Both the position numbers and the translations under genes were made by a program. From IMG/VR virus record IMGVR_UViG_3300036783_000080, positions 1 to 64,000 of that record: a stretch of 64,000 nt of DNA. The stretch is one strand, 5' to 3'. Shown here one piece after another: positions 10,601 to 22,757 of the stretch. Under the pieces are notes generated by a model. That model worked only from the letters and a program-made list of their open reading frames with translations. It did no database searches and was not told the origin of the DNA. Source of the DNA: a virus. Taxonomy: Duplodnaviria > Caudoviricetes. Every line of letters starts with the position of its first letter. Within the stretch, counting starts at the first letter, position 1.

Positions 10601-10956
10601 GTATTCTGAGATTGAAGGTTAACTCGTTGAGCTTCTACTTGACTAAGCTCTCTTTTAAGTTTATCAATCTCAGTTTGGTTGTTAGCAGTTTTCATTGACT
10701 TTTCAAGTTCGGATTTCTTTCTGTCGAACTCCTGTTTCATCTGCTCGTACTGTCTGAAGAATGTTCTATATATCCCTTCCGCTTGTTTGGACATCCGTTC
10801 AAAGCTCTGAATGTCTTTATCAGAAAGGAATCCGTCAGAGTAATCCCCTTTTCTCTTAACATTGTCCATTCCAGAGACAGCCTTTTCCAAGTCCTTTACG
10901 GAACGTATGGCATCGGCAGTGTCGGCTTTCAGTTTAATTCCAATTTCCTGTTCCAT
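7645..10956 (-). CDS. tape measure protein with C-terminal glucosaminidase (GH73-like) domain
   Basis: 1103 aa, helical and Gly/Ala-rich; C-terminal YLVAHAAEETGWG...NMFGIGAYD...YAT motif. Confidence 0.85.
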   Translation of the reverse strand: MEQEIGIKLKADTADAIRSVKDLEKAVSGMDNVKRKGDYSDGFLSDKDIQSFERMSKQAEGIYRTFFRQYEQMKQEFDRKKSELEKSMKTANNQTEIDKLKRELSQVEAQRVNLQSQNTIAQQLQQRASDSSQQVSGMQGQNGGGLTALLGGGGAKALSMLGGMLAVGKLWNFGNQGRQMVKSEEEYTAQLGNRMGGYNGKYDNARKDAMETGMYNGYKAKETMEVADVLTSTGGAKDKKTTWDEVKQTQTASRAMGIDATALAQSSGTLKKLGALQDGDQRKFANLLAGAIKKEGMQGRDRELVDAISGLSTQAASGQLSLSQQELQQMVGMSAMLGSKEEGFKGQRGADLLSNMDAGIKNGDNRMDVLLGWGTEFQGVKGRADIERMKAKGITDPDNVKRIFSNIDKYAGGNKDAQALLVKELFNTDIEKADRLLQPDILEELKKGGVSKKEMESLVNNGDAEISKKSKDYSGSDAARRAKNDAHKEKTQKWFGEKVDAVWEPMKEAFFGMPEWAQWGTMGAGAAGSMWAGKKAIGGIGNMFKGGEAGGGFINNAKNIGSKAWEGTKNIGSKAVDATKWVGSKAGDLFKSGGTGSKALEGAKNIGSKAWEGTKAVGSKIGDFFKGGGGKAATAAGEGGGLLKGLGKIAGPVGTALSLKWAGDMGDEAGDWLFGHSKGDIKADQPLTNIGKEPLRHTDDRKSAFRKGWDWLTGNDNKAEAAELSPKEAEALKKPKKAEEEKPVEVKVKEESKDHVMTPKAIEPGQGFQDLKKADNQVKASSTTTSKDKEKEEKEKKVKRAQEELLDKERRNLDKREQLSKTDSKTQEQSKRNQEAQSLGFNGMSAMSEKKEDGFFSKMFKSIGGFFGGIGDGIAGLFGGGDSASADSGGGGTMYNNNGKASGEYQQFRNQNLKQQSNMTAAEVDAWINSKAPAGSIMRGKGAAFVKASQESGLDVKYLVAHAAEETGWGTSNIAKKKGNMFGIGAYDSSPMASAFQFGGVDAGIVEGAKWIAKNYTNKGQDTIYKMRNNNGEHEYATNSDWDSNIAKIMATAPATRTLNVKVSGGINGLSQENNGAVTKSLQNAFSAPNLAYEFTQGVGGNR
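9080..9290 (-). repeat. 11-residue KNIGSKAWEGT-type repeats in the tape measure protein
   Basis: KNIGSKAWEGT/KNIGSKAVDAT/KWVGSKAGDLF/KNIGSKAWEGT/KAVGSKIGDFF visible in the translation. Confidence 0.8.
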
Positions 10957-11445
10957 TAGTCATCCACCTCCTCCCACTCATCATCATTGATTGGTTGATT
11001 GAAGAACTCTTCATCTTCCTCTTCCCAATCACCATCATTAAAGTCAACCTTTTCTGGTGTTGTTTCTTTATTCTGTTCCCTTTGTTGAATCTCGGCAAGA
11101 ATACGTTTTGACTCATCAGAGCGTTGAATTTCAACATTATTGTCCTTAATGAATTTATTGTAGTTGTCAACGACTTCTTCAAACTCTTCATCTTTAGACT
11201 CATGTTTCTCGTCATCCCATTCTTTGTTGAACTCTTCGTCTTTACTGTTCTCAATCTTTCTGGCAATTTCAGGGTTGTCAAGCAAGTAATCCTCCCAAAG
11301 ATATTCTTTCTGTTCCTCTGTTAAGTTCAGAAAGTCTGGATTGGTTGGAAGGACTTTCCATTGTTTAAGAATCCAAGCATCAAACCTATTGCTCGGATTG
11401 CTCGCTATTTCCTTCATTGTCAGCTGATTGAGGCTTTCTGCGAAA
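10956..11445 (-). CDS. tail assembly chaperone extension (gpT-like), probably reached by a +1 frameshift
   Basis: Overlaps the upstream chaperone in the +1 frame; VLPTNPDFLNLTEEQ motif; acidic tail; directly precedes the tape measure gene. Confidence 0.65.
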
Positions 11446-11787
11446 GGTACGTTGCCACTGGTTGTACTCCTCATATACTTCATCTAAAATTTCATAGTCA
11501 TACATGTTTTGTGGGTCAAACCAATCTGGAGTTGAATCAAGGACATAATGTAACGTAGCAATCATGTGAATGATATTATCCGCAATCAATTCTACTTCTC
11601 GCATGCCCTCTAACATTTTTGTTTTCATTACGCCGATTTGAGCACGTTCCATAATTGTTGGGTGGTGGAATACGAATTTACCAATGTACGTTGGGTCAAA
11701 TTCTGTAAAGTCCATCGTTTTTGAATGAACACGTTTACTCCCTTGTAATACTTGTTGTCCTACGTTTCTTGTATCTTGATTTGTCAT
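11386..11787 (-). CDS. tail assembly chaperone (gpG-like)
   Basis: 133 aa between tube and tape measure; RBS AGGAGG; contains ACC TTT CGC near its 3' end. Confidence 0.75.
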   Translation of the reverse strand: MTNQDTRNVGQQVLQGSKRVHSKTMDFTEFDPTYIGKFVFHHPTIMERAQIGVMKTKMLEGMREVELIADNIIHMIATLHYVLDSTPDWFDPQNMYDYEILDEVYEEYNQWQRTFRRKPQSADNEGNSEQSEQ

Positions 11788-11858: not shown

Positions 11859-12377
11859 TTAGTTTTTTGCGTCAGATGCTTTTAGATATTGGAACGTAGC
11901 ATTCTCACCCGCAATAGCGTTTGTTCTGATGTTCTCAGAGTATTCAGAGATTGTACATCCACGGTAAGCACGGACAATACTTTTTGACTCTTTATCAACC
12001 ATAACAATGTCAATTAAGTCAAGATTTAGAACTTCCTCACCTAAAGCAGCAAGACCTAAATCGTTTAATGATTTATTTTTAACAAGGAATCTGTCAAGAG
12101 TTGCAGAACCTTCATAACGGTTTTGAACGTGTTCTTGAGGCATGATAGAACCAACCTCATATACACCCTCTGTACCAAATGAACGTCTTCCGTCAATACC
12201 TTGTGCCCGTCCGATAACTTTGTTGTTAATCATAAGTAACACAGTAGCACCAGAGTGAACTGTTTGGTTCTTTTGCGTAGCAAAGAACTGTAAGTCCAAA
12301 CGTAAAGGTGTAGCGGCTACTGGATGAACAACTGGCTTAGAGAACAAGCTTTTGAATTTTGAAATTAAATTCTTCAT
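11859..12377 (-). CDS. tail tube protein with a 32-aa N-terminal extension ending in LRLDLQFF|A
   Basis: QTVHSGATV...IGRAQGIDGRRSFGTEGVYEVGSIMPQEH is the SPO1/Twort-type tube signature; strong RBS AGGAGGTG upstream of ATG 12377. Confidence 0.9.
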   Translation of the reverse strand: MKNLISKFKSLFSKPVVHPVAATPLRLDLQFFATQKNQTVHSGATVLLMINNKVIGRAQGIDGRRSFGTEGVYEVGSIMPQEHVQNRYEGSATLDRFLVKNKSLNDLGLAALGEEVLNLDLIDIVMVDKESKSIVRAYRGCTISEYSENIRTNAIAGENATFQYLKASDAKN

Positions 12378-12393
12378 GTTCAGCCACCTCCTA

Positions 12394-14097
12394 TTATGCT
12401 AAAATTTGTTGTTGATAGTATTTAGCAGTGATTAAGATGTAGTTGATTGCTCCTACTGGGATACAAGAGTAATCTACAAACACTTGGTCGCCTACTAAAC
12501 GGACAACAACAGATTCTGGTTGATATGTTACAATTACTTCTTCACGCACTTTCTTATCAAGGAATGCTTGTGTTTCATTCTTAATAAGTGCGATAGATGA
12601 GATTGTACCTTTTCCGCCTGCGAATTTTGATTCTAAGTGTTCCACAAGTTCTGTGCTTAACTCGTCATCAAGGATACGCATTGAGATTTCACGGAATGAA
12701 GGGTTTGTATCAACTTGATAAGTCGTAACGCCTTGAACAATACGATAGCCTTTCTTGTTTGTTTGACGAACGAACTCAACGCAAGTTACACCAGACTGGA
12801 TTAATCGGTCAATCTCTGTAGCTGTAAGAACTCTCTCAAGCCCAATAAGATTTAAGAAGTTTAATGTTACAGGCTCTCCAGTAGGTTTTCCAGCGATACG
12901 TCCAGCAATCATAGCCGCTGTGAAGTATGGTGGAAGGACTTCTTGCTCATCACTGTTAATTGCACGTGTGATTCCTGGGTAAGCTACAACTGCACGAGAA
13001 CTATTGAATGTTAACGCACGTCCAATAGCGTCATCCACAGATTCACCCAATTTACCACCGTAAACACCAATCATTTTATTACGTTCTAACACTGATTGGT
13101 TATTGATGAAACGAGCACATTCTGCATGGATAGCTGCGTCACCAGTTAATGGTACTACAATGTAGCAACCTTCACCAAATAGCTTGTTGAACTCTTTTGC
13201 CCAAGAAGCTGGAATTTCACCTTCAGCGCCGCCAGCAAGGTATGTGAAATCAAAGTCCGTAATAGCTCCCGTTGCTGCGAAGTCAACGTTAATTAACTTA
13301 GAGTAACGAGTTTGATACAGTAAGTCTCCTTTTAGAGCTGTTACTGTATAAGATACATCTTTGATGATTTGACTTGCTACCACATCCAAAGCATCTGACT
13401 TAAGGTTTTTGTTACCATAAGTTACCATAGCCGCTTCAAAATCTTTGTTCTCATTGATTTTGTAGATGATTTTATTAATGTCAGCATATTCACCATCACC
13501 TAATTGGAAGCTCATTACATCTGCAGTTCCTACTTTAAGTGCTAGTGTTTTCGCTTTCTTCGTTTGAGTATCTTCAATGATAGATAACGTTGCTGTGTCC
13601 TCTTTACCTTTATATTTAACAGTGAATATTGGTCCAATGTTATCAAATACTTCACGAGTTTCATCAGTCCACAAGTACGCTGTTAAACGTTTAGAACCAA
13701 CTGCTGTACCTGCTTCCAATTTAACTTGTATGTTCTTTGTGAAGTCTCCCCAGTCTTTAGATGTCAAAACTAATGAACCTTTTGTTAAAGTAGATTGTTT
13801 TGCATCAGAAACACGTAAGAAGGAAATAGAGCCTGCTCCCACTCCGTCACCAGATGGAGTCCAAGCTAAATCACCAGCTTTGAATAAATCGCCACCACGT
13901 AGAACGTCACGAGCATCAGCTGGATTGTCAAACGTGTGAACAACGCCTGGTTTCCCACCTTCAGAAGTACCAACAAACGCAATACGCTTAGAACCAGCTG
14001 TTCCAAGAGTCGTTAAACTGTCTGAGTTTGTACGTGAATGTGCTCCTGGGTGAACAATGTTCTTCCCATTAAAGTTAACACCGATATTACGTGCCAT
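12394..14097 (-). CDS. tail sheath protein
   Basis: 567 aa; FVGTSEGGKPG, LRGGDL, GEPVT and YRIVQGVTTY motifs; position before the tube gene. Confidence 0.9.
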   Translation of the reverse strand: MARNIGVNFNGKNIVHPGAHSRTNSDSLTTLGTAGSKRIAFVGTSEGGKPGVVHTFDNPADARDVLRGGDLFKAGDLAWTPSGDGVGAGSISFLRVSDAKQSTLTKGSLVLTSKDWGDFTKNIQVKLEAGTAVGSKRLTAYLWTDETREVFDNIGPIFTVKYKGKEDTATLSIIEDTQTKKAKTLALKVGTADVMSFQLGDGEYADINKIIYKINENKDFEAAMVTYGNKNLKSDALDVVASQIIKDVSYTVTALKGDLLYQTRYSKLINVDFAATGAITDFDFTYLAGGAEGEIPASWAKEFNKLFGEGCYIVVPLTGDAAIHAECARFINNQSVLERNKMIGVYGGKLGESVDDAIGRALTFNSSRAVVAYPGITRAINSDEQEVLPPYFTAAMIAGRIAGKPTGEPVTLNFLNLIGLERVLTATEIDRLIQSGVTCVEFVRQTNKKGYRIVQGVTTYQVDTNPSFREISMRILDDELSTELVEHLESKFAGGKGTISSIALIKNETQAFLDKKVREEVIVTYQPESVVVRLVGDQVFVDYSCIPVGAINYILITAKYYQQQILA

Positions 14098-14338: not shown

Positions 14339-15346
14339 TTATTTTACATCAACGTACGTTGGGCTTGCAGTAATGTAGTAAATAGCTCCTTTGGAGTTTT
14401 TCACTTTATACTGAGGAGAGCCACTCACGTCAACTTTGTCAACGATTTCGAACCCAAACCCAGTATCTACAGTTCCAACAATATACGCTTTGTCCCAAGT
14501 TGGACGGTCATAGAAGTTCAGCCCGTCTACTTTAGAAACAACACGTTTTCCAACGTAGCTTCCTCCACCAGTAGAGCCACCACCGTTACGTTCAAAGCGT
14601 AAGAATGAAGAGTCATTTTTCACCCATTGGTCTCCACCAAGGTTTAACCATCCATCTTGCTCTGCCCAAACGATATAGCTTTCTGGAGCATTAAGCTGAC
14701 GTAAGATACCATAACCTGTTCCTGGACCAGAACGAAGGTTTACACCTGTTCCAGTGATGTAAGCAACACCAATTCCGTTACTTCCACCGCCACCAGTTGG
14801 AGGTGTTGTTTCCCCACCAACATTACCACTACCAGAACCCGCAGAGCCTGACACAAGGTCTTTGAATCCTTGGAATCCTGAAGCAAGTAAGTTACGTGGA
14901 CAGTTTTTACCACTCCAATGTTGGTGAGGAACAACGTTACTTAGACTGATTCCTAAAAGTCCCATAAGGTACTTAGTAAGCTTTGCAGCATTGGCTTTCG
15001 CCTTCGCATAGTTACCGTCACTGTTTACACAGATTTCAGTACCAACAGAATTATAGTTACCAGCAGTTGTACCAGCATGCCAACCCACTTCATTAAGAGG
15101 TAAATGCTGAATGATTTCTTTTTCATCTACAGTAAAGTGCCAAGACACTCCTGCAGAGCCGCCACCATTCGCAATGAAGTTAGCATGAGCATTTGCATTC
15201 GCTCCAGCACTGTCGTTATCAGTTTCATGAATCGTAAGCCAAGTAGGACTCATTGAAATCTGTGGACGGTTACTGTTTGAAGCTGGAATAATTCTAGCGG
15301 AAAAGGGAACACCATCAATGTTAGAAACATTTAAAACTGTTGCCAT
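14339..15346 (-). CDS. N-acetylmuramoyl-L-alanine amidase (Amidase_2) with SH3-like cell-wall-binding domains; endolysin
   Basis: LTIHETDN, SWHFTVD, GWHAG and VVPHQHWSGKNCP zinc-amidase motifs; VNLRSGPG SH3b-like domain. Confidence 0.9.
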   Translation of the reverse strand: MATVLNVSNIDGVPFSARIIPASNSNRPQISMSPTWLTIHETDNDSAGANANAHANFIANGGGSAGVSWHFTVDEKEIIQHLPLNEVGWHAGTTAGNYNSVGTEICVNSDGNYAKAKANAAKLTKYLMGLLGISLSNVVPHQHWSGKNCPRNLLASGFQGFKDLVSGSAGSGSGNVGGETTPPTGGGGSNGIGVAYITGTGVNLRSGPGTGYGILRQLNAPESYIVWAEQDGWLNLGGDQWVKNDSSFLRFERNGGGSTGGGSYVGKRVVSKVDGLNFYDRPTWDKAYIVGTVDTGFGFEIVDKVDVSGSPQYKVKNSKGAIYYITASPTYVDVK

Positions 15347-18794: not shown

Positions 18795-19424
18795 TTAGTC
18801 ATTCACATATATTAAGTTTTCTTTCAAATATTCTCTGAGTTTATCTATGTCCATGATGTTTTTCTCTAAGTATAGTTTGAATACGATATGAAGAGTCTCT
18901 GCTTCAACTTGCTTATGACATTTACCGCAAAGTGTTATCAGATTGAGAAGTTCATCTGCTTCCTTAAAATCCTCAAAAAGCCTTCTTGGGATTATATGAT
19001 GTACTCCATATCTTTTTTCTGTAAGTTCTTCTTTACATTTTTGACATTGTTTTCCATCTCGTTCATACGCTTTTCTTTTCTGCGTCTTTCCTGATGTTGA
19101 TTTACCATCTGTATATGCAACGTTTTCTTCTCCTGATTTAACAATAGGATTATCTCCAATTTCGACTCTATGGGAGCTTGAACAAGAATAAGAACAAAAT
19201 TTGTTATGTTTCCCTCTTACTTTATTTTCACAACCTTCTCTTAAACAAGTTTTTCTTTCGGTCTTGTTACCTCTGGTGTCACTAAGTATTTTTGTCATCT
19301 TTTCATCTTTCAACAAAGCTCCAGGGAACTTCTCTTTGTAATCTTCTTTTGTCATATCATGCTGTCTTAAATGAGTGTTTTGAATCCACTTCATTTCTTT
19401 TCCGCAAACTTTGCATACAACCAT
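18795..19424 (-). CDS. free-standing HNH endonuclease with Zn-finger-like N-terminus
   Basis: CKVCGK..., CQKC...VHHIIPR...NLITLCGKCH HNH motif; start moved to ATG 19424 (GGAGG RBS) because the longer ORF-track call overlaps capsid exon 2 and the terminator. Confidence 0.85.
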   Translation of the reverse strand: MVVCKVCGKEMKWIQNTHLRQHDMTKEDYKEKFPGALLKDEKMTKILSDTRGNKTERKTCLREGCENKVRGKHNKFCSYSCSSSHRVEIGDNPIVKSGEENVAYTDGKSTSGKTQKRKAYERDGKQCQKCKEELTEKRYGVHHIIPRRLFEDFKEADELLNLITLCGKCHKQVEAETLHIVFKLYLEKNIMDIDKLREYLKENLIYVND

Positions 19425-19461
19425 ACAACCAACCTCCATGTATACTTTAGTCATCCATAAG

Positions 19462-19490
19462 AGTATAAAATAAAAAGAGAAGAAAGTCAA
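19462..19490 (-). promoter_or_regulatory. sigma-A-type promoter for the HNH gene, embedded in the capsid terminator
   Basis: TTGACT (19490-19485), 17 bp spacer, TATACT (19467-19462). Confidence 0.7.
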
Positions 19491-19504
19491 GCTTTCTTCT
19501 CCCC
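19469..19504 (-). terminator. intrinsic terminator after the capsid gene
   Basis: GAGAAGAAAG-cttga-CTTTCTTCTC followed by TTTTTATTTT, just after the exon 2 stop codon. Confidence 0.8.
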
Positions 19505-19513
19505 TTATTAGAA

Positions 19514-21231
19514 CTACATGCTCATAGTAGTCTTGATGTTTTTGAATCTCATCCATTTTTTCGGTGCGTATACCTGTGTCTTCACATAAGTTCGCTAGTC
19601 CTTATGCCGTTCTCTTATGAACTGCTGTATGTCGCCATACAGAGGAGACTATATCACCACCTTCAGCTTTACCTGTTCAGGTGACTCTGCATTTCCACTC
19701 GCTTGAGTGTACTCCCAACCATGGGATAGTCGTTAGGCTTTTATCACTTTTCAGTGAATTTAGCACGGTAGGTTGTCTCTTCTCAGAGATTTTCCCCGTT
19801 TAACAGAGTTTCTTCGACTAACATTTCTGCTAGAAGGTACTATGCCGCAATCGTGTCATTGACAGATTCCTGCGTTAATACTGGTACACCGTATAACAGA
19901 ATCATCCAACGGTAAGAAGGAGACAATGTTGCTAAGTCCATCTTCATCATAGGAGCTAACTGTTTGAACGCAAGAACTTGCTCGTTCATTTCACCCATGA
20001 AAGCAGTGAATGTGTTCGGCATAGTTTCGTTACGGTCAACGAATGTTGTAACAGTTCCAGGAGCAGCTTGAGCAGCAGCGAAGCGGTCAATTTCAAAGAA
20101 TCGAGTTCCGTTTGCTTCAGTACGGTAAACACGGAAGTATTCCGTTGGGTACTGAGTTGAAGCTGCGCTTGTGATTGTGATTGTATGAGATTTATTTAAG
20201 TCTCCATCGCCAATTATTAAGTCAGCAGAGAATACTGGAGCAGACTCACCATGACGGTTACAAGCTGTAACTGCATATTTGTAAGTACCTTTACCAGAGT
20301 TATAGAACTCACCATCTTGAGTGTTATTAGTACCAATAGCACCAATAGTAGCAGAAGCTGGAAGAGCAGGAGCTTTCGCAGAGTTTGCTGTCATATTTAA
20401 TGCTTTTGTACGTTTTAAGAAGATATCTGGAGTGAAGTTGACTTTACCACCTTGAGTTTGGAATTGGTCAACGATAACACCAGCAGAATATCCTTGTTGT
20501 GTTGGCATGATAACACGCTCTTTAGGGAAGAACTCTTGAGAGAACTGAGCATGAACTTCGAATGGTAAGAAGATATCAGTTGGAATACCATAGTTATCCA
20601 CAATCATCTGAGCTCCCCAGTTCATGTGACGCTCTTCAAGTGGGTTACCTTTCATGTTGATAGTGTTTTCTGGGTCAATCATGTTATCTAAACCATCAAA
20701 CTCAACATATTCTTTTCCACCAGGAGCAAGTTTTGAGTTACCCCAGAATAAACCATGCTCAAGTTTCTTAAGCATCCATAAAATACCATCTTGGTTATAA
20801 CGAGAAACTACATCACCATGAGCACTATTTACTAATGTCATTTGGTGAGATACTTCACGAGTAGTACCAAGGAATTTTACGAACGCAGCTTGGCGTTGGT
20901 ATTGAGAATCTTCAGTATCTGGTAATTGACCTTCAGGAATGAACCCGCCGCCTTCAGAACCGTAACTGATTAATTGGTTGTACTCTTCAACAGTGTTTGT
21001 AGCTGTTAATTTTGGAATACGTTTCCAGAATTGAATGTGTTGTTCAGAGTAAGTAAGAACTTTTAAACTATTTTCAAGAGATTCAACACGGAACGCTCCA
21101 CCATTGGATTGCGTTTCAGGTGTCGTAGCATAACCTGCTTCCAAGGCTTTGCTTAAGTTATCCAATTCTGCTCCAGATGACATACCGAAGCCAGATTGCA
21201 TGTTACTTCCAAATTGATTTAAAGTATCCAT
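19514..21231 (-). CDS. major capsid protein, spliced: join(21231..19878, 19572..19514), 470 aa
   Basis: GGAFRVESLE, TVEEY and EFDGL capsid motifs; the expected C-terminus ...LYGVPVL-YAPKKWMRFKNI is recovered only after removing 19573-19877. Confidence 0.9.
19573..19877 (-). ncRNA. group I self-splicing intron (305 nt, no internal ORF)
   Basis: Exon ends in U (CCAGUAU) and intron ends in G (GACACAGG); P7 pair GACUA/UAGUC in AACGACUAU and GAUAUAGUC; P/Q-like AAACGGGGAAA and UACCGUGCUAAA; removal restores the reading frame. Confidence 0.88.
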
Positions 21232-22013: not shown

Positions 22014-22757
22014 TTATATTGTTTTATTGATAATATCCAGAGCTTGTTGTCTTGACAAACCCTTAGATAATTGTAAAAACACGACTGCTTCTGACTTAGA
22101 AACTGTTTGCCCGTTAGCCATGTTTGATTTAACTTGTTGCCAGAAATTGAAGTTATCTAAGTTCTCGGCAAGTTGTTTAATCTGACATTCAATGCTTTCA
22201 GTTCTATGAGCACCCCCACCAGATTGTTCTAGCGGCGATGTTGCATATCCAGCTTCTAACGATTTAGACATTCCACCAGAGCTAAAGGACTTTACTACAG
22301 CTTCCCAGGTAGCATTAGTATTCACGGGACTAGGAGTGATTGCGCAGTGATAAATCTTCGCTTTCACAATTTTGTCTCCTTGACGTTCTAACACTTTACC
22401 TTCAACAGAGAAGCCAAGTTTTCTTGGAGCATTTGATTTCTTCAAAGCAACTGCAGTTTCCCACATCCACTTCGCTTTCTCAACGTGCTTCAATAACTTT
22501 CCTTCAACCCAAAGACCATGGTCATCAACTCTCGTGTTTTCCGTAGGATAACCAAGAATTTCTGCGCTGTTATGGTCATAATTTAAATATCCATAATTTA
22601 CGAAGTCAGTTATATCTAGTCCTTTTTGAACCAGACTTTCACCTTGTCTGTCTTGGTCAGGAGTTGAAGCATATCCTTGAATATACCATTCACCCTCATC
22701 CTGAGACTTGACTAAGTCAACATCAGCATCGACTCGGAATTTGAAAGTATCTTGCAT
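22014..22757 (-). CDS. prohead protease
   Basis: IQGYASTPDQDRQGE, LNYDH, LGFSVEG and AITPSPVN motifs. Confidence 0.88.
   Translation of the reverse strand: MQDTFKFRVDADVDLVKSQDEGEWYIQGYASTPDQDRQGESLVQKGLDITDFVNYGYLNYDHNSAEILGYPTENTRVDDHGLWVEGKLLKHVEKAKWMWETAVALKKSNAPRKLGFSVEGKVLERQGDKIVKAKIYHCAITPSPVNTNATWEAVVKSFSSGGMSKSLEAGYATSPLEQSGGGAHRTESIECQIKQLAENLDNFNFWQQVKSNMANGQTVSKSEAVVFLQLSKGLSRQQALDIINKTI

Follow-up and report, generated by a model that had tools for sequence, protein, structure and literature searches.

Tail-tube gene and its genomic setting

The DNA analyzed here (the window) is a 64,000-nucleotide stretch of a viral record whose complete length is 150,650 bp, and all genes in the window lie on the minus strand. 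The tail region is 91% nucleotide-identical to that of Bacillus phage Nachito (Herelleviridae, Spounavirinae), and the phage is a large, lytic, Nachito-like Bacillus phage of the Herelleviridae. The host would be a Bacillus, as judged from the 91% identity to Nachito. The tail-tube gene, its neighbors, and the head protease gene were located as follows.

11859..12377, minus strand: tail tube protein precursor gene (P0001), 172 amino acids, Phi812_tail_tube (PF26461) / phrog_985
12394..14097, minus strand: tail sheath gene (PF04984 and phrog_279, E value 2.7e-102), adjoining the tube gene on its 5' side
10956..11787, minus strand: two overlapping tail assembly chaperone open reading frames (phrog_25000 / phrog_1038), after the tube gene
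22014..22757, minus strand: phage S78 prohead serine protease gene (PF04586 and phrog_1028, E value 2.6e-101)

In a profile search, P0001 matched phrog_985 with an E value of 1.6e-61, and residues 33 to 171 corresponded to profile positions 2 to 140 of 141. The match to the tube of phage 812 (PDB 8q01_A) had an E value of 7e-44, with Ala2 of that chain aligned to Ala33 of P0001. A local Pfam scan of P0001 returned no family match; PF26461 was assigned via the precomputed annotations of homologues. The AlphaFold2 model of P0001 (pLDDT of 69) was matched by Foldseek to the 812 tube chains with an E value of 1e-18 and a TM-score by target of 0.82, followed by tubes of other phages, tailocins, and contractile injection systems, among them those of monocin, diffocin, lambda (gpV), and 80alpha (gp53). 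By the model and the Foldseek matches, the fold of P0001 is the tube fold, a beta-barrel with a stacking loop. The gene order was sheath, tube, chaperones, and tape measure, the last encoding a product of 1103 amino acids beyond the chaperone frames, and the same order was found in Nachito, YungSlug, LysYB1, and metagenomic loci.

Several other features of the structural module were noted in passing. The two chaperone genes (11386..11787 and 10956..11483) lie in different reading frames with an overlap of 98 nt, as is typical of a programmed frameshift product. An endolysin gene (Amidase_2 and SH3_3, phrog_2338; 14339..15346, minus strand) lies within the tail module, just before the sheath gene in gene direction, and so stands among the tail genes instead of forming part of a distinct lysis cassette. 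Just downstream of the capsid gene, inside the structural module, a 253-amino-acid frame (18795..19556, minus strand) combines an HNH endonuclease domain with a ROS/MucR-type zinc-finger segment and probably encodes a homing endonuclease. Residues 22 to 80 of the capsid protein (19840..21231) matched the head maturation protease family phrog_1028, and the C terminus (residues 163 to 219) of the S78 protease (22014..22757, minus strand) matched the capsid family phrog_752. These matches thus point to a segment present in both proteins, perhaps a pro-region that they have in common for scaffold binding or targeting.

An N-terminal leader ending in a copy of the L27 leader

Compared with the family profile and the solved 812 tube, P0001 carries additional residues at its N terminus. 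The features of this part of the gene are listed below, where the downward arrow in a motif marks the predicted cut.

12384..12392, minus strand: ribosome-binding site AGGAGGTGG, read directly, 6 nt before the ATG
12282..12377, minus strand: leader (pro-peptide), codons 1 to 32, predicted to be removed; lacking in both the family profile and the solved 812 tube
12336..12377, minus strand: cationic amphipathic segment, residues 1 to 14, lineage-specific
12279..12305, minus strand: L27-type Prp recognition motif LRLDLQFF↓A, residues 25 to 33, single occurrence in the genome
12282..12284 and 12279..12281, minus strand: Phe32 and Ala33, flanking the predicted scissile bond within the L27-type motif

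Codons 1 to 33, that is, the leader and the first mature Ala, occupy positions 12279..12377. The preliminary description had placed this N terminus behind a strong ribosome-binding site and had noted that no ATG stands just before ATQK. Both statements held when the sequence was re-read. The N terminus was identical, the start ATG lies at 12375..12377, AGGAGGTGG follows directly after the sheath stop codon, and neither ATG nor GTG was found beside Ala33. The layout of stop codon, ribosome-binding site, and ATG is identical in Nachito and YungSlug. An internal start at Leu27 (TTG), the sole alternative within the leader, was rejected; it is not preceded by a Shine-Dalgarno sequence, and YungSlug has TTA there. 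Because the alignments to the profile and to the 812 tube both begin at Ala33, residues 1 to 32 are a true extension of the tube protein.

Residues 25 to 33 correspond to residues 2 to 10 of Bacillus subtilis L27 and are identical to them at 9 of 9 positions around the cut site (compared with L27 as printed in PMC9405229, Table 2), so the resemblance noted at the outset is exact. They also fit the pattern (D/N)-L-Q-(F/L)-F↓A at every position, with Phe at P1, Gln at P3, hydrophobic residues at P4 and P6, and a small residue at P1'. A search of the entire 150,650-bp genome, in all six frames, with the nine-position L27-leader pattern gave one occurrence. The motif is not a chance match, since it is single in the genome and lies exactly at the mature N terminus of the family. 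As had been proposed, P0001 thus has the form of a precursor bearing a Prp site of the L27 type. The profile and 812 alignments indicate that cleavage there would yield the canonical Ala start.

The leader had low confidence in the structure model (pLDDT of 46 to 56) and is predicted to be disordered. The first 14 residues, which had been described as amphipathic, had a hydrophobic moment of 0.56 (shuffle P of ~0.02), and the part of the leader before the motif had a net charge of +4. In the DNA alignment, codons 2 to 24 formed a 23-codon insertion relative to YungSlug, present only in this phage and the Nachito lineage. Between this phage and Nachito, the amphipathic part showed no nonsynonymous and two synonymous differences.

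Leaders among tube homologues

For comparison, a set of 121 tube proteins was used, comprising P0001 and its 120 best homologues from a collection of 5.8 billion proteins. A leader was present in 39 of these tubes and absent in 82. Each of the 39 leaders ended in an L27-type motif directly before an Ala aligned with Ala2 of the leaderless forms. Among the leaderless tubes, 78 of 82 started with MA, which agrees with the MA...QTVH start given at the outset for SPO1/Twort-type tubes. Since all leaders carry the motif and nearly all leaderless tubes start with MA, both routes lead to the same mature end.

A survey of extended homologues for the motif had been suggested as a check on the cleavage proposal. 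Across 40 unique leaders (those of the comparison set and three more distant leader-bearing representatives), which ranged from 8 to 42 residues in length, none was without the motif. Phe at P1, Gln at P3, Leu, Ile, or Val at P4, Asp or Asn at P5, and Phe, Leu, or Met at P6 were found in all 40. P1' was Ala in 37 and Val in 3, and P9 and the positions further upstream were not conserved. In the substrate-bound crystal structure of Prp, P1 stacks on His22, the P3 Gln is hydrogen-bonded, P4 and P6 occupy a hydrophobic pocket, and P1' has to be a small residue (PMC9405229). The conserved leader positions are therefore the key contact determinants named for that structure.

The three leaders with Val at P1' (FD(L/I)QRF↓V, in P0095, P0124, and P0125) have a larger residue there than expected for Prp. 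This Val may indicate that the cleavage site is shifted or inefficiently cut, or that the S1' pocket of the Prp involved is wider.

Beyond the motif, the leaders differed widely. The YungSlug tube (P0002) has a 9-residue leader, the same length as the L27 leader, and many metagenomic relatives likewise carry only an L27-like leader of 8 to 10 residues. In the Lysinibacillus phages LysYB1 and LysYB2 (P0003), the leader has 28 residues and is unrelated apart from sharing the ending; further long leaders are either acidic or lack amphipathic character. Only 4 of 50,697 phage isolate records, namely Nachito, YungSlug, LysYB1, and LysYB2, contained a leader. SP-10, Goe26, SPO1, and the Staphylococcus, Listeria, and Enterococcus members are leaderless, and in SP-10 an in-frame TAG stands just before the ATG of the tube gene.

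On a tree of the mature domain of the 121 tubes, the leader state changed at least 13 times, with at least 7 of these changes forced by well-supported branches. Sister pairs with and without a leader were found (P0009/P0028 and P0023/P0043). Leaders were also kept through subclades, in 7 of 7 members of the LysYB1 group and 11 of 12 members of one group with QRF-type leaders. In a separate observation, homologues among P0053 to P0114 (loci L004 to L006) formed one clade of 190 to 229 amino acids, with the extra sequence mostly after the conserved domain; leader and leaderless forms were intermixed within it.

Leader variants and L27 types

Leaders of the QFF type were found in the half of the tree that contains the Bacillus and Lysinibacillus phages. 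Metagenomic sequences make up the remaining half, which carries FDIQRF or FDIQLF leaders, with the same order of sheath, tube, chaperones, and tape measure. Tubes in the metagenomic half were 140 to 229 amino acids long, and those with a leader were 192 to 229 amino acids long.

Because the Arg at P2 in FDIQRF looked odd, genomes were scanned for an L27 with this leader. In 185,579 species genomes, FDIQRFA followed by xKKG gave four matches, all in Selenomonadaceae. Two of the four matches were translated, and both were the start of an L27 gene, MFNFDIQRF↓AHKKG. A Prp gene was present in all four of these genomes and lay directly upstream of L27 in G002, the genome in which the coordinates were compared. 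These L27 leaders with Arg at P2 (FDIQRF↓A) are those of rumen Selenomonadaceae (L007 and L008, from metagenome-assembled genomes). As a side observation, Prp occurred as two tandem domains in a single 241-amino-acid frame in two of the four genomes (G001:C16:351611-352321 and G004:C28:17360-18070) and as a single domain of ~105 amino acids in the other two.

For the other variant, the L27 leader of Erysipelothrix is DIQLF (PMC9405229). The variants used by the tube leaders thus exist as real L27 leaders among various Firmicutes, which is what would be seen were each phage matched to the Prp of its host. The tie of the FDIQRF tubes to Selenomonadaceae is a resemblance of motifs only. A search of 262 Selenomonadaceae genomes with an FDIQRF-type tube (P0070) gave no match, an empty result that is expected for lytic phages, and the nearest isolates to P0070 were the same Bacillus phages, at ~60% identity.

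Candidate protease

A Prp gene (PF04327) was absent from the complete phage genome in a search in which the B. subtilis control was positive. Since the phage has no Prp, a Prp acting on the tube would have to be that of the host. The complete phage genome held no second copy of the motif, and the N terminus of the capsid protein had no L27-like site, so the tube is the only protein that is a candidate substrate of Prp. Prohead proteases work within procapsids, and head maturation in this phage relies on its own S78 protease and needs no Prp. Prp (MEROPS C108) is a cytoplasmic enzyme that acts on ribosomal precursors, and L27 that stays uncleaved prevents ribosomes from functioning (PMC9405229).

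The B. subtilis Prp dimer was modeled with residues 1 to 45 of P0001. The binding model reached a score of 0.70, and the best of three controls had 0.01; because a complex of Staphylococcus aureus Prp with a peptide has been solved, this pass may reflect memory of that structure and shows likeness, not binding. Of 78 solved complexes, 51 attained the mark applied to such models, as did 2 of 108 mismatched pairs. The runs agreed in at least 73% of contacts, and the pLDDT of the partner was at least 53. The modeled interface comprised residues 22 to 36, with Prp residue 34 touching residues 29 to 32, and the model placed the F32↓A33 bond at the active site of B. subtilis Prp.

Taken with the homology of the tube, the conservation of the motif, and the lack of a phage Prp, the sequence makes cleavage of the tube leader by host Prp likely.

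Proposed maturation and role of the leader

The proposed maturation is as follows. The tube would be translated as a 172-residue precursor with a disordered 32-residue leader ending in a copy of the host L27 leader. Host Prp, which normally trims L27 between Phe and Ala, would cut between Phe32 and Ala33. The cut would free a 140-residue subunit with an Ala N terminus, the same end that leaderless relatives would reach by removal of methionine from MA. While attached, the leader would mask the N terminus, and uncut subunits would probably be poor at stacking.

The masking step draws on general knowledge of tail tubes, mostly those of siphophages. In tube proteins, the N terminus touches the long loop of the adjacent ring; the YSD1 tube requires it to self-assemble, and it is a candidate assembly switch (PMC9022992). 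Given this contact, a bulky leader would plausibly block stacking until it is cut, and by this analogy, the leader may have a transient masking role.

An essential regulatory role is unlikely; the repeated changes in leader state on the tree, and the presence of a leader in only 4 of 50,697 isolates, argue against it. The distribution suggests that the leader is a dispensable or conditionally useful add-on and not an essential switch. The earlier proposal that a host protease controls tail assembly found no support, as the leader has been gained or lost at least 13 times.

The best-placed alternative accepts cleavage by Prp and holds that the leader itself is a near-neutral addition, easily gained and lost and tolerated as the host removes it cleanly. 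We regard this as a real possibility, although not the probable one. The frequent gains and losses among the 121 relatives fit it well, as do the sister pairs of either state and the lack of conservation in length and character of the upstream parts. In addition, the capsid protein of 80alpha is normal whether it is precleaved or uncleavable (PMC5744158). The strict retention of the motif in all leaders speaks against near-neutrality, yet it would be expected if an uncleaved tube were harmful. The persistence of leaders across whole subclades, in the LysYB1 group and the QRF group, suggests some benefit.

A stronger form of the Prp proposal makes cleavage a real checkpoint, in which a subunit still bearing the leader could not use its N terminus to engage the long loop of the adjoining ring, and polymerization of the tube, and hence of the sheath, would be paced by the ribosome maturation protease of the host. 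In the Nachito-like lineage, the amphipathic segment would add a further layer by sequestering the precursor or by acting as a released peptide. This form is doubtful. If true, it would be the first host-protease-gated step in the assembly of a contractile tail.

It is improbable that amphipathic residues 1 to 14 hold or sequester the precursor at the membrane until Prp releases it, timing tail assembly. The cationic amphipathic character of the segment stood up to shuffling, and its protein sequence is unchanged between this phage and Nachito. However, the segment is an insertion confined to these lineages, YungSlug and many other relatives have leaders of only 8 to 10 residues, and the other long leaders are acidic or not amphipathic. 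Prp is, moreover, a cytoplasmic enzyme (PMC9405229), and the leader is modeled as disordered. Of the preliminary description, the amphipathic segment therefore stands, while holding at the membrane does not extend to the whole system. Membrane anchoring as a general mechanism was rejected, because the amphipathic part is lineage-specific.

We give a similarly small chance to the leader not being removed by Prp, so that it would stay on the tube or be cut by S78 or by another host enzyme. According to its title, a recent preprint found pneumococcal bL27 to be rescued by an alternate protease. On the other side, 32 extra residues per subunit would be hard to fit at the ring interface, as judged from the review PMC9022992. 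The conserved leader positions are the determinants of Prp and covary with the L27 leader types, and the motif is unique in the genome. Cleavage of the leader by S78 was rejected, since no similar site was found in the capsid protein, including its N terminus, or elsewhere in the genome.

Tail tubes are among the most abundant late proteins. On this basis, the tube precursor could act as a decoy that competes with L27 for Prp and depresses ribosome maturation, or the released 32-residue cationic peptide could be active, for example, on the membrane; this is very improbable, for although uncleaved L27 blocks ribosomes (PMC9405229) and the leader peptide is cationic and amphipathic, a late block of ribosome assembly has no obvious benefit, leaders of 8 to 10 residues cannot form an active peptide, and nothing in the data points to either effect.

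Implications

Cleavage of the tube leader by host Prp remains the preferred account. If this cleavage is confirmed, Prp, an essential ribosome maturation protease, would also mature tails and not only the heads of small staphylococcal phages, and even large lytic Herelleviridae with a head protease of their own would use it. The tubes would then also constitute a clean natural experiment, in which close relatives with and without a leader would have the same mature protein, and it could be asked why the tag is borrowed at all.

The leader variants mirror the L27 types of the Firmicutes and could serve as a clue for predicting the hosts of metagenomic phages. For annotation and structural work, caution is advisable, because the mature tube would start at Ala33 and not at Met1. 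Inhibitors of Prp, which are under development as antibiotics, could interfere with such phages.

Comparison with known systems

The likeness to L27 (bL27) itself is closest around the cut, where all nine residues are those of the B. subtilis protein, and the YungSlug leader even has the length of the L27 leader. The two proteins differ in the residues after the cut, ATQ in the tube and ASKK in L27, and the P0001 leader has 23 extra residues before the motif.

Use of the same motif by the capsid and scaffold proteins of staphylococcal phage 80alpha, which had been mentioned in the preliminary description, is stated in PMC9405229 and PMC5744158. Both cite Wall 2015 for cleavage of the capsid (gp47) and scaffold (gp46) proteins by host Prp. 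As in the tube, these are structural proteins with an L27-like leader and a Phe↓Ala cut site, and the 80alpha leaders, at 13 to 14 residues, are likewise longer than that of L27. The 80alpha substrates are head proteins of a phage without a prohead protease, whereas here the motif is on the tube of a contractile tail in a 150-kb lytic phage with S78. Cleavage is experimental in 80alpha and predicted for the tube. In 80alpha, cleavage of the capsid protein is dispensable, and of the scaffold leader only the presence, not the cleavage, is required (PMC5744158). Since these cleavages are not needed, the presence of a Prp motif does not imply a functional requirement.

The closest analogue is the major tail protein of Staphylococcus phage phi13. 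Its motif was pointed out by Kizziah 2017 (PMC5744158), with the remark that ribosomes, procapsids, and tails all seem to have Prp associated with them. Its 19-residue leader ends in LKLNLQHF↓A, and phi13 has its own head protease. Thus, in both phages a tube-forming tail protein alone bears the host L27 tag beside an own head maturation protease. In contrast to the phage studied here, phi13 is a temperate siphophage with a noncontractile tail, and its motif was noted from sequence only. The phi13 tail protein was not among the tube matches in the phage collection, and the likeness described here is one of leaders. With this precedent in Kizziah 2017, the novelty first claimed for a Prp tag on a tail protein was overstated.

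No paper linking Herelleviridae tubes with Prp was found in the literature search, and the comparative paper on YungSlug mentions neither L27 nor Prp. A search for virion proteomic or N-terminal data on Nachito, YungSlug, and LysYB1 likewise returned none. No earlier survey is known to show that tubes divide into leader-bearing and leaderless forms or that the Prp tag came and went repeatedly. The scheme itself was already known from 80alpha and from the remark on phi13, and here it is extended to the contractile-tail tube of large lytic phages.
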